Under the pieces are notes generated by a model. It was not told where the DNA came from and searched no databases. It saw only the letters and a list, made by a program, of their open reading frames with translations. The translations under genes and the position numbers were made by a program. Source: a virus (lineage: Duplodnaviria > Caudoviricetes). Taken from it: a stretch of DNA of 60,365 bases. Position 1 is the first letter of the stretch; each line of letters starts with the position of its first letter. Where the stretch lies: IMG/VR virus record IMGVR_UViG_3300032319_000867, positions 1 through 60,365 of that record; one strand, written 5' to 3'. Shown here one piece after another: positions 363-49,405 of the stretch.

Positions 363-1295
363 TTATAAACTGTTATCTGGCAAATGCCAGCCTTTATGAC
401 TCTTGCGTTTACCTAATAAAACCTTGTTTAAGTTGCCCTGTTGCAGATCATGAACTCGACAAAACTCCCAAACATTACGACTACGATATACTGTTCCATC
501 CGGTGAAACTATCTCAAACTCTTTGCCTTTTTGATGCTCAACCGCCGAATAAGGAACACCAACAAGTGTCTCGTCATACAATCTCCAACCATGAGCTTGA
601 TACACTTCACCGCTGAATACTGGCATCATTGATTGTTTTACCAAGCCATGCTCCACGCAAAAACGATTGAGATTGGTAATGTCATATACCTCACCTGTAG
701 GTGATATAATCTTACCCCAGTATTTTGCTAACTGCTCTCCAACCTTACGTTTAGATTCCTTTGTATGACAAGTTCGATGAAATTTATCTAGCATTTCTGG
801 AGAAGAAGCTATAGCCTTCATCTTCTCTATATGCTCTGGACGTTGCCAAATAGCTTTAGAGATATCAGACTGTTTTTGCCTTGTCTCAGGGTTTTCGTAT
901 CTTTTTCTCTGTGCTTCCGATTGTTTTCGTCTTGTTTTCTCTGGATCTTTGCTTGGATAACCTTCCCGTGAGATAGCTTTGCTGCAAAGGTTATAACACA
1001 TATCACCAGAGTCATAATATTGTTTGATATATTCCTCTTCAACCAGCAAACGCTCTTCTTTGGTTTTTCCTTCGGTAACTTCGATTACCTCAAACACGAA
1101 AGCTTCTTCACCAGATTTATTATAATCTGCTTGTAAAAACTTATTACTATGTTTTTGGTTGCGTAACGAAGAAGTATGTTGGCTCCAACGAACTTTGAAA
1201 AGTTTCGCAGAACCAACATATATCCTACCATTTACCTTGTTTGTGATTTTATAGATTCCAGATTTGAGTGAATGACCTTCGTACTTATATTCCAT
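363..1295 (-). CDS. Free-standing GIY-YIG homing endonuclease
   Basis: SGIYKITN..GRIYVGSA..R..H motif; basic helical repeats; two C-terminal SP.G.VY...NL..FC..H.L......GW DNA-binding repeats. Confidence 0.9.
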   Translation of the reverse strand: MEYKYEGHSLKSGIYKITNKVNGRIYVGSAKLFKVRWSQHTSSLRNQKHSNKFLQADYNKSGEEAFVFEVIEVTEGKTKEERLLVEEEYIKQYYDSGDMCYNLCSKAISREGYPSKDPEKTRRKQSEAQRKRYENPETRQKQSDISKAIWQRPEHIEKMKAIASSPEMLDKFHRTCHTKESKRKVGEQLAKYWGKIISPTGEVYDITNLNRFCVEHGLVKQSMMPVFSGEVYQAHGWRLYDETLVGVPYSAVEHQKGKEFEIVSPDGTVYRSRNVWEFCRVHDLQQGNLNKVLLGKRKSHKGWHLPDNSL

Positions 1296-1346: not shown

Positions 1347-4300
1347 CTAGATACTAACCCCGGACGGTAAAACAACGAAATCCATAACAATGTATTCAAC
1401 TGCTCTTGTTGGAAGCACTCGAATTTGTGCATTCATACGGTTGCTGTTCACATCTTCAGTTGTATTGTTGCGTTCATCGCAGATAATTGCAAACTGTTCA
1501 ATACCTTGTTGTGATTGAACGGTTGCAAGCACCAAACTTGCTTCATTGATGAAACGTGTACGAAGAGCTGGTGTGTTTTGTTCAAACAACAAACGGTTAC
1601 CAATTGCAACAATTTGACGTTTGATTTCAAGTACCATGCGTTTGACGTTAATGCTTTCCAAAGCATCTGATGCAAGTTGCAATGTGTTTTGTGAGAAAAA
1701 CACATAGTTTGCACCGGGGAATTTGACAATTGGGTTGATGTTTGCATCATACATTGTGTTACGATCTGTTTGATTAAGTCTGATTGCAGTGTTAATAACA
1801 AAGTTCAAACTTCCACGATCAAATCCTGCTGGTGCAAACCAAGGGAACTTAACACGGTCGTTGTAAGACAATGCAGATACCGCAGCAACTGATGCAGGAA
1901 CAGTTACTCTACGTCCATTAATTGTATCATCTATAACAATGCTTGGGAAATAAGCAGCACCAGCATTGTTATCTAATGCACGGTTAATAAATGCATTTGC
2001 TGTTTTGTTGATGGAAATAAATCTATTTGATTCACCATCAAAAATTCGCACATCATCTTTGTCATATGGTTGAATGTCAAGAAGATAAAAACTCAAACCA
2101 TATGCTACGTTTTTTTCTAGTGCGTAATTTGTAACTAATGGATCACGTTGACCGGGAACCGCCAAAATGTTGTTGTTCGCAATACTTGTGTTTGTTGCAA
2201 TATCAAGTGCTGTGCGATAAGCAATAACGTTTTGGTTTGACGAACCAACGCCAGTATAGTTGGTTGCTGTTGGAGCACCGGGAGATACATAGCTTGCGTT
2301 AGCAAGACCATAAACTCCACCTGCACCAACTTCGGTTGAAGTTGATTGATCTGTAAAACGAGATGCTTGTTTGTCAAAAATATTCACACCATCCCAACCA
2401 CCTTGCATAAATGTTGTAAATTTAGCGTAATTTGAGAAGTTGTTAAATGTTGTTGCTGAACTGCTGTTTAACAAACTTGCAAGTGTAATACGGTTGCTGA
2501 AGTTTGAAGCAACATAAGTTGCTGGATCAACTGTTGCGTTGCGGAGATATGCAGCATCACGCATAAGTGCTGCTGGTGTGCTGGAATTAACTGCTGAAAT
2601 TGTTGTTACATTCAAAGCAACTTTAGCAAGAGAAAATTTATTGTTGTTTAACAAATCATTTGCAGATCCTGTTGTAAGCACTTCCATTTTTTGAATGCCA
2701 GAAAACTTAGCAACGTTTTCAACAATTTGGTTTATTTCAGTGTTTACGTTAACGTTCAACACGTTGTTATTGTTACGTTCAAATTTAACACCCCAATAAA
2801 GTCTTCCATCAAGCACTGTTTGTGAACTTGGAGCACCAAACACTGTACCAGATGCAGTCAATGGGTTACGGGTTATTGTAAAACGATATGGAACAGGTGG
2901 AACAATTGAACCAGAAAGAGTTGAGCCAAAAGAACCTGTATTAGCCCCTGTAATCCTTGTTTGGTTTAAGGCTACTGAACCAGTTTGGTCAGTTAAAGCT
3001 ACGTTTGTTAACAGTATTTGGTGACCACGGAAACCGAATGGAAGAGCTTGGGAGGGTACTTCTCCAGCATCTAGTTGAGTGCTTGGAATAACACGAATAA
3101 ACTTGCTTTTGTTCCCATATTTTCCTTGAATTACAAGGTTGCGGTCATCAGCTTCAATAGCGTCAAAATTAAAGCTTGTACGCTTGTCACCAATGGCTTT
3201 TATAATGTAATTGTCACTATTTGGATCAAATGATAGATTATTGAATGATTCAAGAATTTGTGGTTCAGCATCACTGTCATTAAATACTCTTACTTGAAGA
3301 GTAAATGATCCATAGCTGTTGTTTGGATTTGTTGATGCTTGCAAGTTTGCAATACTAACTTTATATTTGTTATTTGCGAATGCACCATCATCACGGCTTT
3401 CTACTTGGAACAAGTCATATTCAATACCACCAAAAGGCTGTGAAATAAAGAATGGTGTTTTTGGTGTTGTGTAACGTGTATCAAATCTACCAAATGCTCT
3501 ACCAAAATCAATACCTACTGAGTTGGTATTCGCTGCACCAGAAAGAACAGCAACAGTATTAACCCCAAAACTTGCAGAAAGAGTTGCAACTTCTGCATCT
3601 ACAGGATAATGGATATAAAGAAGATGTTTTGTTGATTCAAAGCTTTCTGGATTTGTGTTCAACATTTTTCCAACATACTTGTCGGATGTTGGATCAAGAG
3701 AAGCAGAATAAATTTTTAATCCAGCAAACCCATCATCTGAAGCAAAAGAACTACCAGCAGATGAAGAAACCACAAGTTTAAACAACCCTTGCATATTTCC
3801 TGCTTGTGAAGTTCCAACTGCTGCGGCTTCATAAGTACCATTACCAGCAGCAACGGCTGTAGGATCATACACCCCACCAGAATCAACGGCTCCGCTCAAC
3901 ACAAGAATTCTAGTGTCTGGTGTTGTAAACAACACAGCACGAACAAGATTTACCGAATCATTATCTGCTGTGAAACCATTTACAGTATAGCTATCATTAT
4001 TTGTAAACATTGGATAGCCAAACACTTCATTGTTCTGAACAAAGTGTTTTGCAACAAGAAATTGTACACGACCTTGTAATGCACCAGAAGCAAACACTGT
4101 ACCATTACCAACAACTTGCATACCAGCATTAACAACTGTACCGTTGGTTTCAGTTTGTGAAATATCAACAGAGCTACTATTAGCTCCTGCTCCAAGAACA
4201 CGAATAAAGTTACAAGAAGCTACTTCACTACCTTTGGCTTCAAAAAATTTTTGTACAGCGTATGTTCCTACATACTTTGAATTAACATCACCAAATTTAT

Positions 4301-4531: not shown

Positions 4532-5743
4532 TTAACCCTTGTTATCAATGAAAAAATCGTATAAAGCTTGTTGATCTGAAGCTGTGTATACTGTTTCTCC
4601 TTGTTTTTGATTGTATGCCATTTGCTTGACATACTTTGTTTGTGTTGTTTGTGTTGTTGGATCTTTATATGTTTTTTCAAACAGTATTTTTTCTTGTTCG
4701 GTTGGTTTTTGTGCTGTTAAAGGATTTTCTTCAATATCTGTTAACACAAAAGGATTGGTAAGAGTTGGATCAATTTTTGTACCTTCATATTGTTTGATGT
4801 CATTTTCATTATAAACGTTACCTTGAGCAACATATGTTTCAAATGAAATGTTAATATTCGACAAATAACGTTTGAATGGAACTCTTTGACCGGGACCAGA
4901 AGGAGCCAAAATATAACCTCTTACAGTCATGTTAAAACTATATTTGGTTAATCTTTCGGCGTCAGTAATATCATCATAATTGTCTTGAGCATTTAATCCA
5001 GAATCAACAGTTGCTGCAAACCAATAACCTTTTTCTGTTTTTAAATAAAAACCTTTGCCGGGAGCAATTTGATTTGCTAGAATTGTTTCTAACATGTAGT
5101 TCATATGTTGTGTATAATTTGACCACAACGAAATTTCATATGTTGCTGTATAAAATTGTGGAAAAGGAATTGCTATGATTTCATAAATGTGATCTGCACG
5201 CAATTCTTTTGCTTTGTTATCCAATAACATTCCTTCTTTTATTGAAGGTAAGTTTTGATCTTCGCCTTTACTTTCACGTAAAGTATCTGGTGGCACAGGA
5301 ACATTTGGTAAAAGTAAACGATTCAACAAAGATTGATAATCTTTATCTGATTCATCAAGTCTACGTTTAACTGTTAGCTCACCGGGGAATACATCGCCAT
5401 TTTGCTGCTCGATACCAGTTCTACGAATAGAAATTGCTGGAAGCAATAATGCGCCTGTTCTAACGTCTCTAAAAGGTTTTAAACGCTTTGCAAGAGCAAA
5501 CCTTTCTCCAGTTGCTAAAATAACAAATGGTTTTTTAATGTTTACTTCTTTTTCGTAGTTGGAAACACCTTGATATGTTCTGAATGATATATCTTTATCA
5601 AACAAAGCATGTACAGCACCATCTACGTCTTCAATTCCACAAGGAGGAATGTAAAACTTAGAAGGATCATTGTTCGCAAGATCATACCCTGTAGGTATTT
5701 GTTCTTTACCTTCAATAACAGGAACGTTTAATCGTGTTGTCAT
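4532..5743 (-). CDS. Putative tail completion/terminator protein (T4 gp15-like)
   Basis: IEDVD.AV, GERF, LPAISIRRTG motifs; position between neck and sheath genes. Confidence 0.55.
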   Translation of the reverse strand: MTTRLNVPVIEGKEQIPTGYDLANNDPSKFYIPPCGIEDVDGAVHALFDKDISFRTYQGVSNYEKEVNIKKPFVILATGERFALAKRLKPFRDVRTGALLLPAISIRRTGIEQQNGDVFPGELTVKRRLDESDKDYQSLLNRLLLPNVPVPPDTLRESKGEDQNLPSIKEGMLLDNKAKELRADHIYEIIAIPFPQFYTATYEISLWSNYTQHMNYMLETILANQIAPGKGFYLKTEKGYWFAATVDSGLNAQDNYDDITDAERLTKYSFNMTVRGYILAPSGPGQRVPFKRYLSNINISFETYVAQGNVYNENDIKQYEGTKIDPTLTNPFVLTDIEENPLTAQKPTEQEKILFEKTYKDPTTQTTQTKYVKQMAYNQKQGETVYTASDQQALYDFFIDNKG

Positions 5744-5762
5744 ACTTTATAAGTATCCAACA

Positions 5763-6485
5763 CTATTCATCATATATTCCTTTTTTCGGAGGCAAAGGAT
5801 CATTGTTAAACGAACTTGCTTTATCTCCTTCGATAAAGTCTCCGTTTTCATCAACATTTGGTTCAACACGTTTAGCTCCTGTACCCAAAGCAATTGGAGC
5901 CATATATTCATTCAAACGTTCACGCATCTCACGAACATCACCTGTAGCTTCTCCTTCATTTGTTATTGGCAAGCCACGTTGTTGTTCAAATACTTTTTCA
6001 ACATCTTCCGGTGCAAGACGAGGAATTGGTAGATTTGGTACGGTCAATTGACCAATTCTTGCATTTCTGGCTGTTAACTTCCAAGCTGTGTTATATTCAG
6101 CAAGACCAAAGATATTTTTTCCTGCATTTACCACAGTTAAAATTTCATACAAGGTATCATCATAAGAAAAGAAATCACCTTCAGATGGAACAATCTTTTT
6201 ATCTTGCATATCTTTGTATTGAATAAACAATTCTATTTTAGCTTCGATATCTGAACCAAATCCTGTTGTTTTGCTTGAATACTCTGGCATACCAACAAGT
6301 GCTGGAATATTTATTGGGTTTTCAAAAATCTTTTCAATTGATTCGTTATATAACGTGTTCAACTTACTTTTGATTGGAGACACAGGGAAATATTGAATTG
6401 CTTGGCCTACAACATCTTTTACAAATTCTTTCGTCAAGTCATTGATAAATTGAATTTCTCTTTGACCTATGAATAATCTTGCCAT
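5763..6485 (-). CDS. Putative neck/head-closure protein (T4 gp14-like)
   Basis: MARLF..., LYNE, P.EGDFF.Y....YEI motifs; synteny. Start placed at ATG 6485 because the N-terminus matches the stub at 7505-7555. Confidence 0.65.
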   Translation of the reverse strand: MARLFIGQREIQFINDLTKEFVKDVVGQAIQYFPVSPIKSKLNTLYNESIEKIFENPINIPALVGMPEYSSKTTGFGSDIEAKIELFIQYKDMQDKKIVPSEGDFFSYDDTLYEILTVVNAGKNIFGLAEYNTAWKLTARNARIGQLTVPNLPIPRLAPEDVEKVFEQQRGLPITNEGEATGDVREMRERLNEYMAPIALGTGAKRVEPNVDENGDFIEGDKASSFNNDPLPPKKGIYDE

Positions 6486-6615
6486 GAAGATAAATATGTA
6501 GTTCAACTAGTTTTGCAAATCTCTTTATTTTAAGCCAGTTTTAATATCCGATCATGAGCGAATTAAAAACCGTAAGGGTCAGCATATTTAAAAATGAAAG
6601 GCTAGGGGTCAGCAA

Positions 6616-7515
6616 ATGGAGCACGGAAAACTGAATTGGTATTTTGATTATACGTTTAATGGCAAACAACATTCTAGAACACGGAACGTTATATACAAAA
6701 TTGAAAACACATTATCAGGCAAATTATATATTGGACAAACAAAACGTATGCTTTTCGAACGATGGAGGGATTATAAGTACGGTCTTCTTAGACCTATACA
6801 GGTAAAGAAAAGATCGGGAGCAAATATTAAACTCAAACGCTCTGTACAATATTATTTTAAACAAATCGGCAACGTTGAATTTTTACGTTTTTCAATCGTG
6901 GAAATAGTGGATTGTAGCAATGTTGATCCAAGATCGTTAGAAGATTTTTTAGGGGAAAAAGAACGATATCATATTAAAGAACTTCGAAAAAAACATGGGA
7001 ATATGGTTTGTAACGTACTCGACGGTGGAACAGTACGAGTGTTTAATGATAATGGGAAACAAAACATAAGCGAAGCCAAAAAGCGTTTCTACCAAACCGA
7101 AAAAGGAGAAGCACTTAAAGAAAAACTTCGCAATATCCAAACCGGACATACTATTTCGGAAGAAACTAGAAAAAAACTCTCTGAGTCTCATAAAGGATTG
7201 TTAGCAGGAGATAAACATCCTTTGTTTGGTAAGACAGGAGAACTTAGCTCAACTTATGGAATGAAACACAAACAAGAATCAATAAGAAAAATGAAACAAA
7301 ACAGAAAAGGTAAGTGCAGCGGAATGGATAATCACAATGCCAAAATTTACGACTTATCTGATAGACCTCTCGTTTCTAATACTGGCGAGTTATATAGGCA
7401 AATTGTATGTCTCAGTGCCTTTTGCAAATTACATGCCCTACATCCCACTCATCTCAGAAATGTAATCAGTGGCAAAAACAAATCGCACAAAGGTTGGAAG
7501 CTGGAAGATCATTGA
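6616..7515 (+). CDS. Free-standing GIY-YIG homing endonuclease, antisense to the structural operon
   Basis: VIYKIEN..SGKLYIGQT..R motif; NUMOD3-like ISEETRKKLSESHKG..HPLFGK repeats; C-terminal HKGW repeat. Confidence 0.9.
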   Translation: MEHGKLNWYFDYTFNGKQHSRTRNVIYKIENTLSGKLYIGQTKRMLFERWRDYKYGLLRPIQVKKRSGANIKLKRSVQYYFKQIGNVEFLRFSIVEIVDCSNVDPRSLEDFLGEKERYHIKELRKKHGNMVCNVLDGGTVRVFNDNGKQNISEAKKRFYQTEKGEALKEKLRNIQTGHTISEETRKKLSESHKGLLAGDKHPLFGKTGELSSTYGMKHKQESIRKMKQNRKGKCSGMDNHNAKIYDLSDRPLVSNTGELYRQIVCLSAFCKLHALHPTHLRNVISGKNKSHKGWKLEDH

Positions 7516-7555
7516 TGAACTGTACTTCCCTTAAACCTATGAATAATCTTGCCAT
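7505..7555 (-). pseudogene. Orphaned 5' stub of the neck gene
   Basis: Encodes MARLFIGLREVQFINDL versus MARLFIGQREIQFINDL at 6485; first 21 nt identical; preceded by AGGATA RBS-like sequence. Confidence 0.85.
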
Positions 7556-7594
7556 TGTTTATCCTATTAATGTAAAGAGGGCAGGTTTTAAAAA

Positions 7595-8854
7595 CTAGAA
7601 TATACCAATTGCATATTTTGGAGGCATCGGTATAAATGCAAGTTGTTTAACCATGTTTTCTGCTTTGGAAGCTTCACGTTCAGCAATTTTGTCATAAGTT
7701 AGATTGTCTAAAGTTTCTTTTAAGCCTGTCATAAGCTTTTCTTTATCTTCTTTACCTTGGCTGATTAAATCATCACCATTCAATTGAAGATCAGCACCGG
7801 GAATAGGAAAGCTTTTAAACTTACCACGAATTCTACCAAGCTGGATACAAGACAAGGCCAATGTCATTTGTGCTATCCAGTTTCTACACCACATGTTTAA
7901 TGAGTTGTAATCTAATGGGCCAAAGGGGGCTGTAAAAGGTCCATTAACGCCATAAATTTTATCTTGTTGATATGAGCCAGAAACACCTGATCCTGATGGA
8001 AAATATGCTGAACCGCTATTAATAAGTGTATTTGCAAGCGTTGGAAAAGGTTGTTTTGTAAATCTCACACGCATCCAAATTCGATTATTATAACCGGGAA
8101 CAAGACTATTCGGAGTTGGGTAAATTCTAATGGTACGTCCAACAATCTTATAACTGTAATGTGATCTACGAACACGTTGAGCAGCTTCTAACATACCTGC
8201 TCTTAATACGTCTTCAAACAATGGAAGAACATAAAAGCGGGTATCTGGAATATAACTTTCAACAGGTAATCCTGTTGCTACGAAGTTTGATGCAAGATTT
8301 GAGTTGAACACATATTGAACAGGAGCATTATGAAAAACTTCTACAACTTGCATTGAGCCTACAGATCCAGAAGGTTGTAAATTCCAAACTGGCTGACCTG
8401 TTTCTTTATCAATAGCATCCACAAACAAGTCATAAACTTGTTTGCCAGATTTCATCTCAATATAACAGTTATATGTTTCTTCATCTTGAGAATAACCAAC
8501 AACACCTGCGTATGGGGTTGCTAGGTCCAACAAAAATTCAAGATTTTGTTGAACATACATATTTGTTATGTTAATATTGTTGTTGCCGTTAGCGTCAATA
8601 CTACCAGTTGGTGATCCCATTAAAGAAGCAAGGTTAGAAACATTTTGATATTCAATCATTTTACCGTTAAATTCACGGGTTGCTTCCTCAAAGTTTCCCC
8701 AAATCATTTGTTTGGTTAACTCAACACCAAGTACATCTTCTCCAAGTGCTCGCAACACAAATGTAACCATGTTGTCAGCATCTTGTTGAAATAACTGATA
8801 TTTGTCGTAGAAACCAAATGGTGTAGGATGTAGTGTGGTATTAAATGTACTCAT
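7595..8854 (-). CDS. Putative neck/adaptor protein (T4 gp13-like)
   Basis: LRALG...VELT, LGRIRGKF..IPG...LNGDDL motifs; synteny. Confidence 0.7.
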   Translation of the reverse strand: MSTFNTTLHPTPFGFYDKYQLFQQDADNMVTFVLRALGEDVLGVELTKQMIWGNFEEATREFNGKMIEYQNVSNLASLMGSPTGSIDANGNNNINITNMYVQQNLEFLLDLATPYAGVVGYSQDEETYNCYIEMKSGKQVYDLFVDAIDKETGQPVWNLQPSGSVGSMQVVEVFHNAPVQYVFNSNLASNFVATGLPVESYIPDTRFYVLPLFEDVLRAGMLEAAQRVRRSHYSYKIVGRTIRIYPTPNSLVPGYNNRIWMRVRFTKQPFPTLANTLINSGSAYFPSGSGVSGSYQQDKIYGVNGPFTAPFGPLDYNSLNMWCRNWIAQMTLALSCIQLGRIRGKFKSFPIPGADLQLNGDDLISQGKEDKEKLMTGLKETLDNLTYDKIAEREASKAENMVKQLAFIPMPPKYAIGIF

Positions 8855-8906
8855 CAAATATAATTACAGTTAAACAAACCACTTGTTATTAAAAAGGATT
8901 ATTATT

Positions 8907-9578
8907 GTGAGTAGTTCTCAACTAAAAACAATTATCAAATCCGCTATCTTAGAAATTAAAGATTCAGAAATGAAAAGGTTGGGAAAAATTTCTTCTCATA
9001 CTGGAATTCGTACTTTGCGTGTTTTTGACTTCGATGACACCATCGCAAAAACAAATTCAAAGGTTGGTGTCACTGAATTTAACAAAACCACTAATGAACA
9101 AGTCAAAGACAAGTATCAAATAACTCCAGCAGAATATGCTAAGTTTAAAACTGACATAATACCATTTAATCCAAATGTTCGATATGAATTTGATTATAGC
9201 GAATTTGCAGAAGTGCTTGATCCGCAAATCATTGATTGGACTTTTAATATCTTAAAAAAAGTTGTTGCCAAGCTTCATGAAAGCGATAACTTTCCAGCAG
9301 TTATCTTAACTGCAAGAGGACATAAGGCTAATAAAAACATTCGTAAGTTCTTGGCAAAATATGATATTCATATTCCAGTTGTTACCTTGGACAATTCTGC
9401 TCCAGAATTAAAAAGTAACTGGGTCAAGCACGTTATGCTTGATCGGGATATTCCTCATATTGAGTTTTTTGATGATAGCGTTTTAAATGTTGACGCTGTT
9501 AATAGCTTACAATCTGATTCTGAATTGATTGATAAGTTTGGCGATACTTTACGTATTCGTTCTAGATTAATCAAATAA
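8907..9578 (+). CDS. HAD-superfamily phosphatase (RNA-repair-type HAD domain)
   Basis: FDFDDT (motif I), LTAR (II), K (III), FFDDS (IV); GTG start after AAGGA; N-terminal QLKTIIKSAILE segment. Confidence 0.75.
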   Translation: MSSSQLKTIIKSAILEIKDSEMKRLGKISSHTGIRTLRVFDFDDTIAKTNSKVGVTEFNKTTNEQVKDKYQITPAEYAKFKTDIIPFNPNVRYEFDYSEFAEVLDPQIIDWTFNILKKVVAKLHESDNFPAVILTARGHKANKNIRKFLAKYDIHIPVVTLDNSAPELKSNWVKHVMLDRDIPHIEFFDDSVLNVDAVNSLQSDSELIDKFGDTLRIRSRLIK

Positions 9579-12626: not shown

Positions 12627-12725
12627 GCTTTGTTCCTTTAGCTAATAACAATATATATGGGTTTAACACACTAAACAAGATGATTCAATATATATAAACT
12701 ACTCACAAAGATAAGGAGATACTTT

Positions 12726-15530: not shown

Positions 15531-15588
15531 TTTGATTTATCTCCTATTAATTGTTATTTACCGTTTTTGGTATATCTCTAAATATGCA

Positions 15589-17859: not shown

Positions 17860-17934
17860 ATTTTGTTACTCCTGATATAACTTTTAGTTTTTAAGTATGG
17901 TGGTTAATTAACTTATCCCTTTTGCCTATTATTA

Positions 17935-36409: not shown

Positions 36410-36527
36410 CAGGAATGCTTGAAAGAATTTTCAAGTTTTGAACCATATATATAAGGGTTCAATATCATTTTAATTTCAAAAAAGCGTTTAAAACGCTTGA
36501 AATTAAATTAACCAAAAGGAAAGAGTA

Positions 36528-49392: not shown

Positions 49393-49405
49393 CATACTTA
49401 TTCAC

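Follow-up and report, generated by a model that had tools for sequence, protein, structure and literature searches.

A putative GIY-YIG homing cassette with a relic of a neck gene start between the late genes of an uncultured freshwater jumbo phage

The window analysed here is the whole of the IMG/VR virus record IMGVR_UViG_3300032319_000867, 60,365 nucleotides (nt) in length. Its source is an uncultured freshwater jumbo phage (a myovirus), of which the record represents a 60-kb fragment estimated to be 24% complete; relatives reach 245-260 kb. The late genes lie on the minus strand in the order 420-residue adaptor-like gene, 240-residue gene (g240), 403-residue gene and 1038-residue tail sheath gene. 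Between the adaptor-like gene, which ends with the stop codon TAG at 7597-7595, and g240 we found a cassette that consists of a short copy of the g240 start (the stub), a predicted homing endonuclease gene on the opposite strand and a spacer (Table 1). This order of stub, antisense GIY-YIG gene and full gene had been given in a preliminary description, made from the letters and their open reading frames (ORFs), and is borne out by both.

The stub follows the adaptor-like gene after a spacer of 39 nt. It opens with an ATG at 7555, has the sequence AGGA 8 nt upstream of this codon and agrees with the start of g240 in 41 of 51 bases, while the next-best 51-mer to the g240 start reaches 31 in the whole window on both strands (mean 14.2, standard deviation 3.2). 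The first 21 nt of the two copies are identical. Among codons 8-17, seven of ten differ, five of them synonymously and two by a replacement (L8Q and V11I), in agreement with what had been reported before. The stub had been taken to be 17 codons long; it is indeed a real copy of the g240 start with a Shine-Dalgarno (SD) sequence, but its ORF is longer and comprises 29 codons, the last 12 of which (codons 18-29) are the antisense of the endonuclease C-terminus. As also described earlier, the full gene has no purine-rich SD sequence in front of its ATG at 6485, and TATTTA stands 5 nt upstream of it. A CATATTTA box is located here, 5 nt before the g240 ATG, and a second one, in divergent orientation, lies 26 nt before the ATG of the endonuclease gene. 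The ORF list stretches g240 to a TTG at 6506; the relatives place the start at the ATG.

Table 1. Position of the cassette, its parts and the surrounding features in the window
Feature	Position	Strand	Remarks
Predicted free-standing GIY-YIG + NUMOD3 homing endonuclease gene, 299 residues	6616-7515	+	antisense to the late genes
Stub ORF, 29 codons + stop	7466-7555	-	codons 1-17 (7555-7505) copy the g240 start; orthologous stubs in L005 and L064
21-nt perfect direct repeat, copy 1 (g240 codons 1-7)	7535-7555	-	sequence comparison
21-nt direct repeat, copy 2, real g240 start	6465-6485	-	X4 and X5 junctions exactly at 6485
Spacer with motif TAAAAC..CCTCT (7576-7590) and SD AGGA, now feeding the stub	7556-7594	-	same spacer type in the empty alleles L013 and X5
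Cassette-borne spacer with two divergent CATATTTA boxes	6486-6615	.	6491-6498 (-) and 6583-6590 (+)
g240, intact gp14-like neck (stopper) gene, 240 residues	5763-6485	-	start ATG 6485
Upstream gene, adaptor/gp13-like neck protein, 420 residues	7595-8857	-	ORF; weak match to PHROG 211 'head-tail adaptor Ad2', E 1.5e-6; left flank of the slot
403-residue gene, right flank of the slot	4532-5743	-	ORF
Tail sheath gene, 1038 residues	1347-4463	-	next after the 403-residue gene
Intergenic CATAYWTA boxes	6491-6498, 6583-6590, 12652-12659, 15579-15586, 17892-17899, 36444-36451, 49393-49400	.	point at the next gene

By domain tests, the 299-residue protein is a predicted GIY-YIG homing endonuclease of the I-TevI/Seg type. 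It matches Pfam NUMOD3 with 24.8 bits (cut-off 20.4) and PHROG 314 'homing endonuclease' with an E-value of 1.2e-20. Moreover, it could be aligned to the catalytic domain of I-TevI (1ln0/1mk0; E 0.03), and in this alignment the catalytic positions are kept, namely VIY..LYIG, the Arg of ERW and the Glu of KERY. The last 11 nt of the endonuclease gene, including its TGA, overlap codons 14-17 of the stub on the opposite strand.

Scanning IMG/VR with the neck protein, we obtained 40 related loci (numbered with an L in the following), of which 32 show both flanking genes; several of the 32 are near-duplicates and do not count as 32 independent genomes. The layout of stub, endonuclease gene and full gene occurs in three lineages, the window, L005/L004 and L064. 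L005 comprises a stub of 29 codons, an antisense endonuclease gene (76% amino acid identity to that of the window) and the full gene, and the cut record L004 agrees with it over its extent. L064 came to light when the endonuclease protein was used as query; it combines a stub of 10 codons with a frameshifted antisense endonuclease gene (2986-3909; 62% amino acid identity) and the full gene. When IMG/VR was searched with the stub motif, only the L005 contig was recovered; the search with the endonuclease protein gave the L005 contig and L064 only, and the window's own gene start, searched for exactly, gave 0 matches. In all three carriers the SD sequence precedes the stub and not the real gene, and the stop codon of the endonuclease gene lies within the stub sequence. 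Related endonucleases run several residues past a common KGWKL motif; the junction of the cassette comes directly after KGWKL.

The similarity between the window and L005 is unevenly distributed. From the stub ATG to about position 7090, that is over the stub and the C-terminal half of the endonuclease, the two are 88-96% identical, compared with 44-66% over the remaining N-terminal half of the gene, 32-72% over the cassette spacer and about 60-85% in the flanking genes. The stub forms the end of this high-identity tract and is contiguous with the 3' half of the endonuclease gene. The stubs of the window and L005 agree in 46 of 51 bases (90%) and have in common an AGG codon that is absent from all full genes. 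In the N-terminal half of the endonuclease it is L005 and L064 that are 70-90% identical. The C-terminal half appears in these comparisons as a separate DNA-binding module that was swapped as a unit between cassettes, and judged from the alignments the endonuclease genes of this slot are domain mosaics.

We further compared contigs from 4 of 20 public runs with positions 5700-8900 of the window; the parts not covered in X5 and X6 are uninformative. Contigs of run X2 have the window form with the cassette present. They break at the cassette edges (6576-6580 and 7548-7579), and several alleles may coexist in that sample. A 27.6-kb contig of run X4 shows flanks more than 99% identical to the window (5 and 4 mismatches over 786 and 1329 nt) and joins 6485 to 7572 with 1030 different nt between them, the window-type gene start being kept; the filler is probably the second endonuclease family described below. 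In X5, which comes from a different study, a 330-nt contig matches 6250-6485 with 3 mismatches in 236 nt and continues past 6485 with an exact match to 7556-7574 (19 nt), followed by three small indels. Because about 10 mismatches in 30 nt would be expected with a start of the stub type, we regard X5 as an empty allele with a start of the full-gene type. It had been expected that the empty allele would read stub plus downstream gene; X5 reads spacer plus full-gene-type start instead. The nearest relatives, L001-L003, with flanking genes of 92-95% amino acid identity, have an empty slot as well. The proposed mobility is thus supported by presence and absence among close relatives, with X5 and L001-L003 empty, X2 filled and X4 carrying another filler. 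By comparing alleles and lineages, we could show that a block of about 1070 bp (stub bases 22-51, endonuclease gene and spacer), bounded by the 21-base gene start, has moved between lineages.

The residues encoded by the two gene starts point in the same direction as the alleles. The live start encodes Q8 and I11, as in L001-L003, and the stub encodes L8 and V11, as in the clade L004-L012 (L013 has P8). Since both the X5 and the X4 allele carry the window-type start, the start of the full-length gene appears to be native in the window lineage, and the stub appears to have been imported together with the endonuclease. An earlier idea of ours, that the spacer before the stub was imported too, as the spacer of L001-L003 differs, was withdrawn when X5 showed this spacer type to be native to the window sublineage.

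We consider it probable, at roughly 0.65, that the element is a free-standing GIY-YIG homing cassette with a relic of illegitimate break repair that has spread by homologous exchange via the 21-base gene start. At the founding of the element, the gp14-like gene of an L005-like phage would have suffered a double-strand break close to its start, and the break would have been repaired sloppily. An antisense endonuclease gene, a few codons short of its own end, would have been joined to codon 17 of the neck gene, and would then take its last residues and its stop codon from the neck gene piece. The other side of the cassette would hold a second gene start, which is complete and has a promoter box close by. 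One-sided illegitimate repair is suggested because the junction follows KGWKL and the stop codon is borrowed from the neck gene. Entry into further genomes may have occurred by homing or by homologous exchange, with crossovers inside or to the left of the 21-base repeat. In the filled allele, g240 would be expressed from the CATATTTA box of the cassette as a nearly leaderless message without an SD sequence, and the old SD sequence would drive the 29-codon stub only.

Provided that the enzyme cuts alleles of the X5 type, its target can be narrowed down from the composition of the carrier. A site entirely within the coding sequence is not expected, because the live copy of the carrier is the same there; nor is one confined to the spacer and the first 21 bases, both of which are retained in the stub copy. 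As either part alone persists in the carrier, the target would be expected to span the native spacer/ATG junction and codons 8-17, two halves that are joined only in the empty allele. Enzymes of the I-TevI type have a two-part recognition sequence, which fits the target proposed here. Going one step further, the stub might be a working part of the cassette that, with its copy of the first 21-51 bases of an essential gene, serves as left homology arm, splits the two-part target and places the gene under a leaderless-type promoter. We put this forward tentatively and rather doubt it. If it were true, neither gene-start copy in a carrier could be cut, each being a half-site, and the cassette would exemplify a third way, besides introns or inteins and plain intergenic siting, of residing at essential gene starts. 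Taken together with a repeat-flanked, sense-strand endonuclease family in the same slot, such a third way would be a general one.

Several observations weigh against the homing cassette as outlined here. The GIY-YIG domain itself scores 18.8 bits in Pfam, under the cut-off of 22.6, and both the endonuclease activity and the target of the 299-residue protein are predictions. No donor with the N-terminal half of the window's endonuclease was found in the IMG/VR searches. The evidence for the promoter is suggestive only, because the box was defined after the data were seen. Regarding the alleles, the X4 filler is known by its length only, and the X5 junction is one short contig of depth 3.8, of which 30 of 94 loose letters were seen. 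It is conceivable that X5 arose secondarily, when a filled ancestor lost the DNA between its 21-nt repeats; a recent deletion is mildly disfavoured because the X5 spacer differs from that of the window by its three small indels. Over its first 75 nt the live gene shows about 80% identity to L001 and about as much to the L005/L010 clade, and some co-conversion at the live start is conceivable. Finally, the first 50 nt of the full gene in L005 are 72% identical to L009, the nearest endonuclease-free relative, compared with about 90% further on; L009 has an unusual ATT start.

The last of these points touches on the mechanism favoured in the preliminary description, in which endonuclease, promoter and a recoded, cleavage-resistant gene start enter together after codon 17 and leave the resident start behind as a stub. 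The structure alone is compatible with such an event, and the fungal mitochondrial mobile open reading frame (mORF) hybrids work in this way at 3' ends (PMC3630166, in the portion drawn on here). Because the first 50 nt of L005 diverge from L009, this picture may hold for the founding event in an L005-like ancestor. For the window lineage we consider it unlikely. The direction of donation had been given as live start foreign and stub native, but the supposedly recoded start is present in the empty X5 allele and in the X4 allele with the alternative cassette, it has Q8 and I11 like L001-L003, and it is the stub, not the live start, that falls into the tract of high identity to L005 and bears the residues of that clade. 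Moreover, no special recoding is needed, since the 10 differences in 51 bases are no larger than the ordinary divergence between clades.

The preliminary description had also spoken of the invasion of a structural gene. The coding sequence of g240 is uninterrupted, however, and the cassette lies in an intergenic slot that is used by many cassettes. Among the 32 loci with both flanks, the spacer measures 18-145 nt in ten (L001-3, L010, L012, L013, L021, L024, L030 and L036), and inserts of 976-2681 nt are present in the other 22. As these inserts are varied, the slot can be regarded as a cassette hot spot. They contain sense-strand GIY-YIG genes, a 290-320-residue gene, paralogous 369- and 470-residue genes and decayed endonuclease genes. 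Sense-strand endonuclease genes of the MEYKYEG.. family are flanked in the slot by direct repeats of the spacer motif (L009 1765-2830, L008 2948-4000, L025 1835-2880). In L009 the flanking repeat is a perfect 21-mer, and in L008 the filler measures 1030 nt counted from the same spacer point, the size of the X4 filler.

The richness of the slot raises another explanation, namely that the stub is a recombination scar of the hot spot which arose independently of the endonuclease, the endonuclease gene being merely a lodger without causal link. L031 and L033 have a 24-nt stub without an endonuclease and with an AAGT microhomology, and inserts of many kinds occupy the 22 filled loci. We nevertheless regard this explanation as quite improbable. 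The endonuclease frame ends in the stub in three of three carriers, the stub moves together with the 3' half of the endonuclease gene, and direct repeats of the insertion site also flank the second endonuclease family in the slot. Because the frame ends in the stub and this second family is repeat-flanked, repeats of the gene start or of the insertion site seem to be tied to endonuclease cassettes. Practically negligible is a self-splicing intron of 1.07 kb that joins the stub to the gene body in RNA, for which nothing speaks beyond an endonuclease gene between two pieces resembling one gene: Rfam gave no family at E <= 1 for window positions 5500-9000 and none at gathering score in 16 of the 40 related loci, the downstream copy is complete, has an ATG of its own and occurs likewise in the empty X5 allele, the endonuclease gene is antisense, and a splice from stub codon 17 to codon 18 would require the 3' splice site to lie within an intact gene, all of which agrees with the earlier statement that no intron is involved.

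Intronless homing by T4-type free-standing GIY-YIG (Seg) endonucleases was reportedly described by Belle et al. (2002), and the illegitimate repair of double-strand breaks in T4 intron homing with limited exon homology is said to go back to Parker et al. (1999). Compared with the T4 Seg endonucleases, as the portion of PMC2988022 drawn on here presents them, our element likewise combines an I-TevI-like GIY-YIG domain with NUMOD3 and a C-terminal DNA-binding module, lies between genes, is present or absent among close relatives with co-movement of flanking DNA, and has its own putative late-type promoter box. By every criterion that can be tested on sequence, our element belongs with the free-standing GIY-YIG genes of the T4 Seg type. 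Unlike the Seg genes, the cassette contains a 51-nt relic of the neighbouring gene start, from which its stop codon is made; it is antisense to the late operon and parts a gene from its SD sequence, and its cleavage is predicted only. Illegitimate break repair at microhomologies has been documented in T4 intron homing in the same portion of that source (PMC2988022). One-sided homology, microhomology junctions and ectopic settling are features of that process which would create a stub such as ours. The T4 case is a laboratory observation on introns, whereas here we deal with a natural, inherited element that crosses lineages.

A second group of parallels is provided by fungal mitochondria, where mORF gene hybrids have been described for atp6 of Allomyces and for atp6, atp9, cox2 and nad3 of Glomus (PMC3630166) as well as for atp6 and cob of Endoconidiophora (PMC6279837). 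As far as the portions drawn on from these two sources go, an endonuclease gene lies there, too, between two diverged copies of a gene terminus, which in our case are 41/51 identical; the differences are mostly synonymous and one copy stems from another lineage. The mitochondrial hybrids differ from the cassette, in the same portions, in that their 3' end is duplicated and not the 5' end, and that the endonuclease is in phase and not antisense. In the window lineage the foreign copy is dead and the native copy expressed, the reverse of the mitochondrial situation. Accordingly, the mORF pattern of a foreign copy linked to the gene body and a displaced native copy is not what we found in the window lineage. 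The 'HEG islands' (homing endonuclease gene islands) located at boundaries of recombination in phages such as ICP1 (PMC10448857) resemble the slot as hot spots that gather endonuclease genes and cargo genes of unknown function, with piecemeal exchange and domain mosaics; duplicated gene starts beside nuclease genes are not described in the portion of that source drawn on. In the open full-text literature, which leaves most subscription journals outside its scope, we came across no account of relics of gene starts next to endonuclease genes of phages. The known parallels are the 3'-end duplications in fungal mitochondria.

The locus offers a natural, population-level view of a putative free-standing homing endonuclease that settles, without intron or intein, where an essential late gene begins. 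Three allelic states occur between flanks of more than 99% identity, namely the empty slot, the antisense cassette with stub and a different filler of 1030 bases. The stub may serve as a datable marker of endonuclease traffic between lineages. For annotation it is relevant that stubs of this kind are readily mistaken for small genes or lead to wrongly placed gene starts.

Regarding the promoter which the preliminary description had ascribed to the new gene copy, we found that TATTTA belongs to a CATAYWTA box that recurs before other genes; this supports the claim to the extent of a suggestion. CATAYWTA occurs 8 times in the window, a count no more than chance, and seven of the eight are intergenic and point at the next gene. 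Of 61 crude gene starts, 6 have the related pattern TA[TC][AT]TAT in the 25 nt upstream, compared with 0.4 expected. In all three cassettes the 20 nt before the ATG are conserved, the remaining spacer being 26-56% identical. CATAYWTA may be a late promoter element of this phage group, and from its recurrence before other genes a promoter role of the box before g240 is plausible. A scan for sigma-70-type promoters gave fewer promoter-like sites than shuffled sequences, and no terminator was found inside the cassette. At two genes of the window (ATGs 6485 and 49406) the CATAYWTA box ends 5 nt before the ATG, and there is no SD sequence.

A weak start of g240 may be tolerable, because 11 of 39 relatives have ATT or ATA instead of ATG at codon 1 (L006, L009, L011, L014, L015, L019, L020, L032, L034, L039 and L040). 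These relatives show SD-like purines upstream and no in-frame ATG, GTG or TTG nearby. In L019 and L009 there is an upstream ORF in the frame of g240, separated from it by a stop only.

The designation of g240 as a neck gene is a fair label, which draws on structure prediction and gene order. The protein, 94% identical in amino acids to L001-L003, matched no Pfam or PHROG family. Its AlphaFold model has a mean predicted local distance difference test score (pLDDT) of 57 (core about 80), and the best PDB matches of this low-confidence model are phage neck chains (E 1e-4 to 3e-3; template modelling score 0.3-0.6), including the T4 portal-neck-tail complex and gp13/gp14 complexes. The gene order of adaptor-like gene, g240, 403-residue gene and sheath fits the position of a neck protein, and homologues of the 420-residue gene lie upstream of g240 in 32 of the 40 loci.

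Searches beyond IMG/VR added little. In the phage GenBank collection, a DNA search with 5700-8900 gave no match and a protein search a single distant match. Among 344 stretches from a metagenome scan with g240 there were 19 loci, mostly apparently IMG/VR contigs, and none was near-identical to the window.

Some further observations concern other occupants of the slot. The stub of L031 and L033 (2832-2855) copies the g240 start between the paralogous 470- and 369-residue genes, which are not endonucleases; it is of the L024 type, not of the locus's own type, and the microhomology of 4 bases lies at the junction. The 470/369-residue paralogues gave no Pfam match, and no family was found in PHROG or Pfam for the 290- and 369-residue slot genes; of the 290-318-residue family, the L005 member alone was searched against Pfam, without a match. 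This family recurs in the slot, alone or beside endonuclease genes (L005 2033-2905, L009 3074-3973, L016 3042-3998). In L017 (1350-1590) a sense-strand endonuclease gene is decaying, with about 22 N-terminal and about 50 C-terminal codons left. Candidate 'RLFIG' stubs in L016-L018 were rejected; they are the C-terminus of the decayed sense-strand endonuclease gene.

The window has a second GIY-YIG gene, located directly after the sheath gene (363-1295, minus strand), which encodes 310 residues and belongs to the MEYKYEG.. family. It is flanked by direct copies of a motif of about 23 nt, TAAAAY..CCTCT (351-365, 1295-1309 and 1328-1342). This motif occurs four times in the window, compared with 0.02 expected, the fourth copy being the one in the spacer before the stub (7576-7590). 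In front of the 310-residue gene there is a 16-bp hairpin; its right arm extends over the SD sequence and ends at the ATG.

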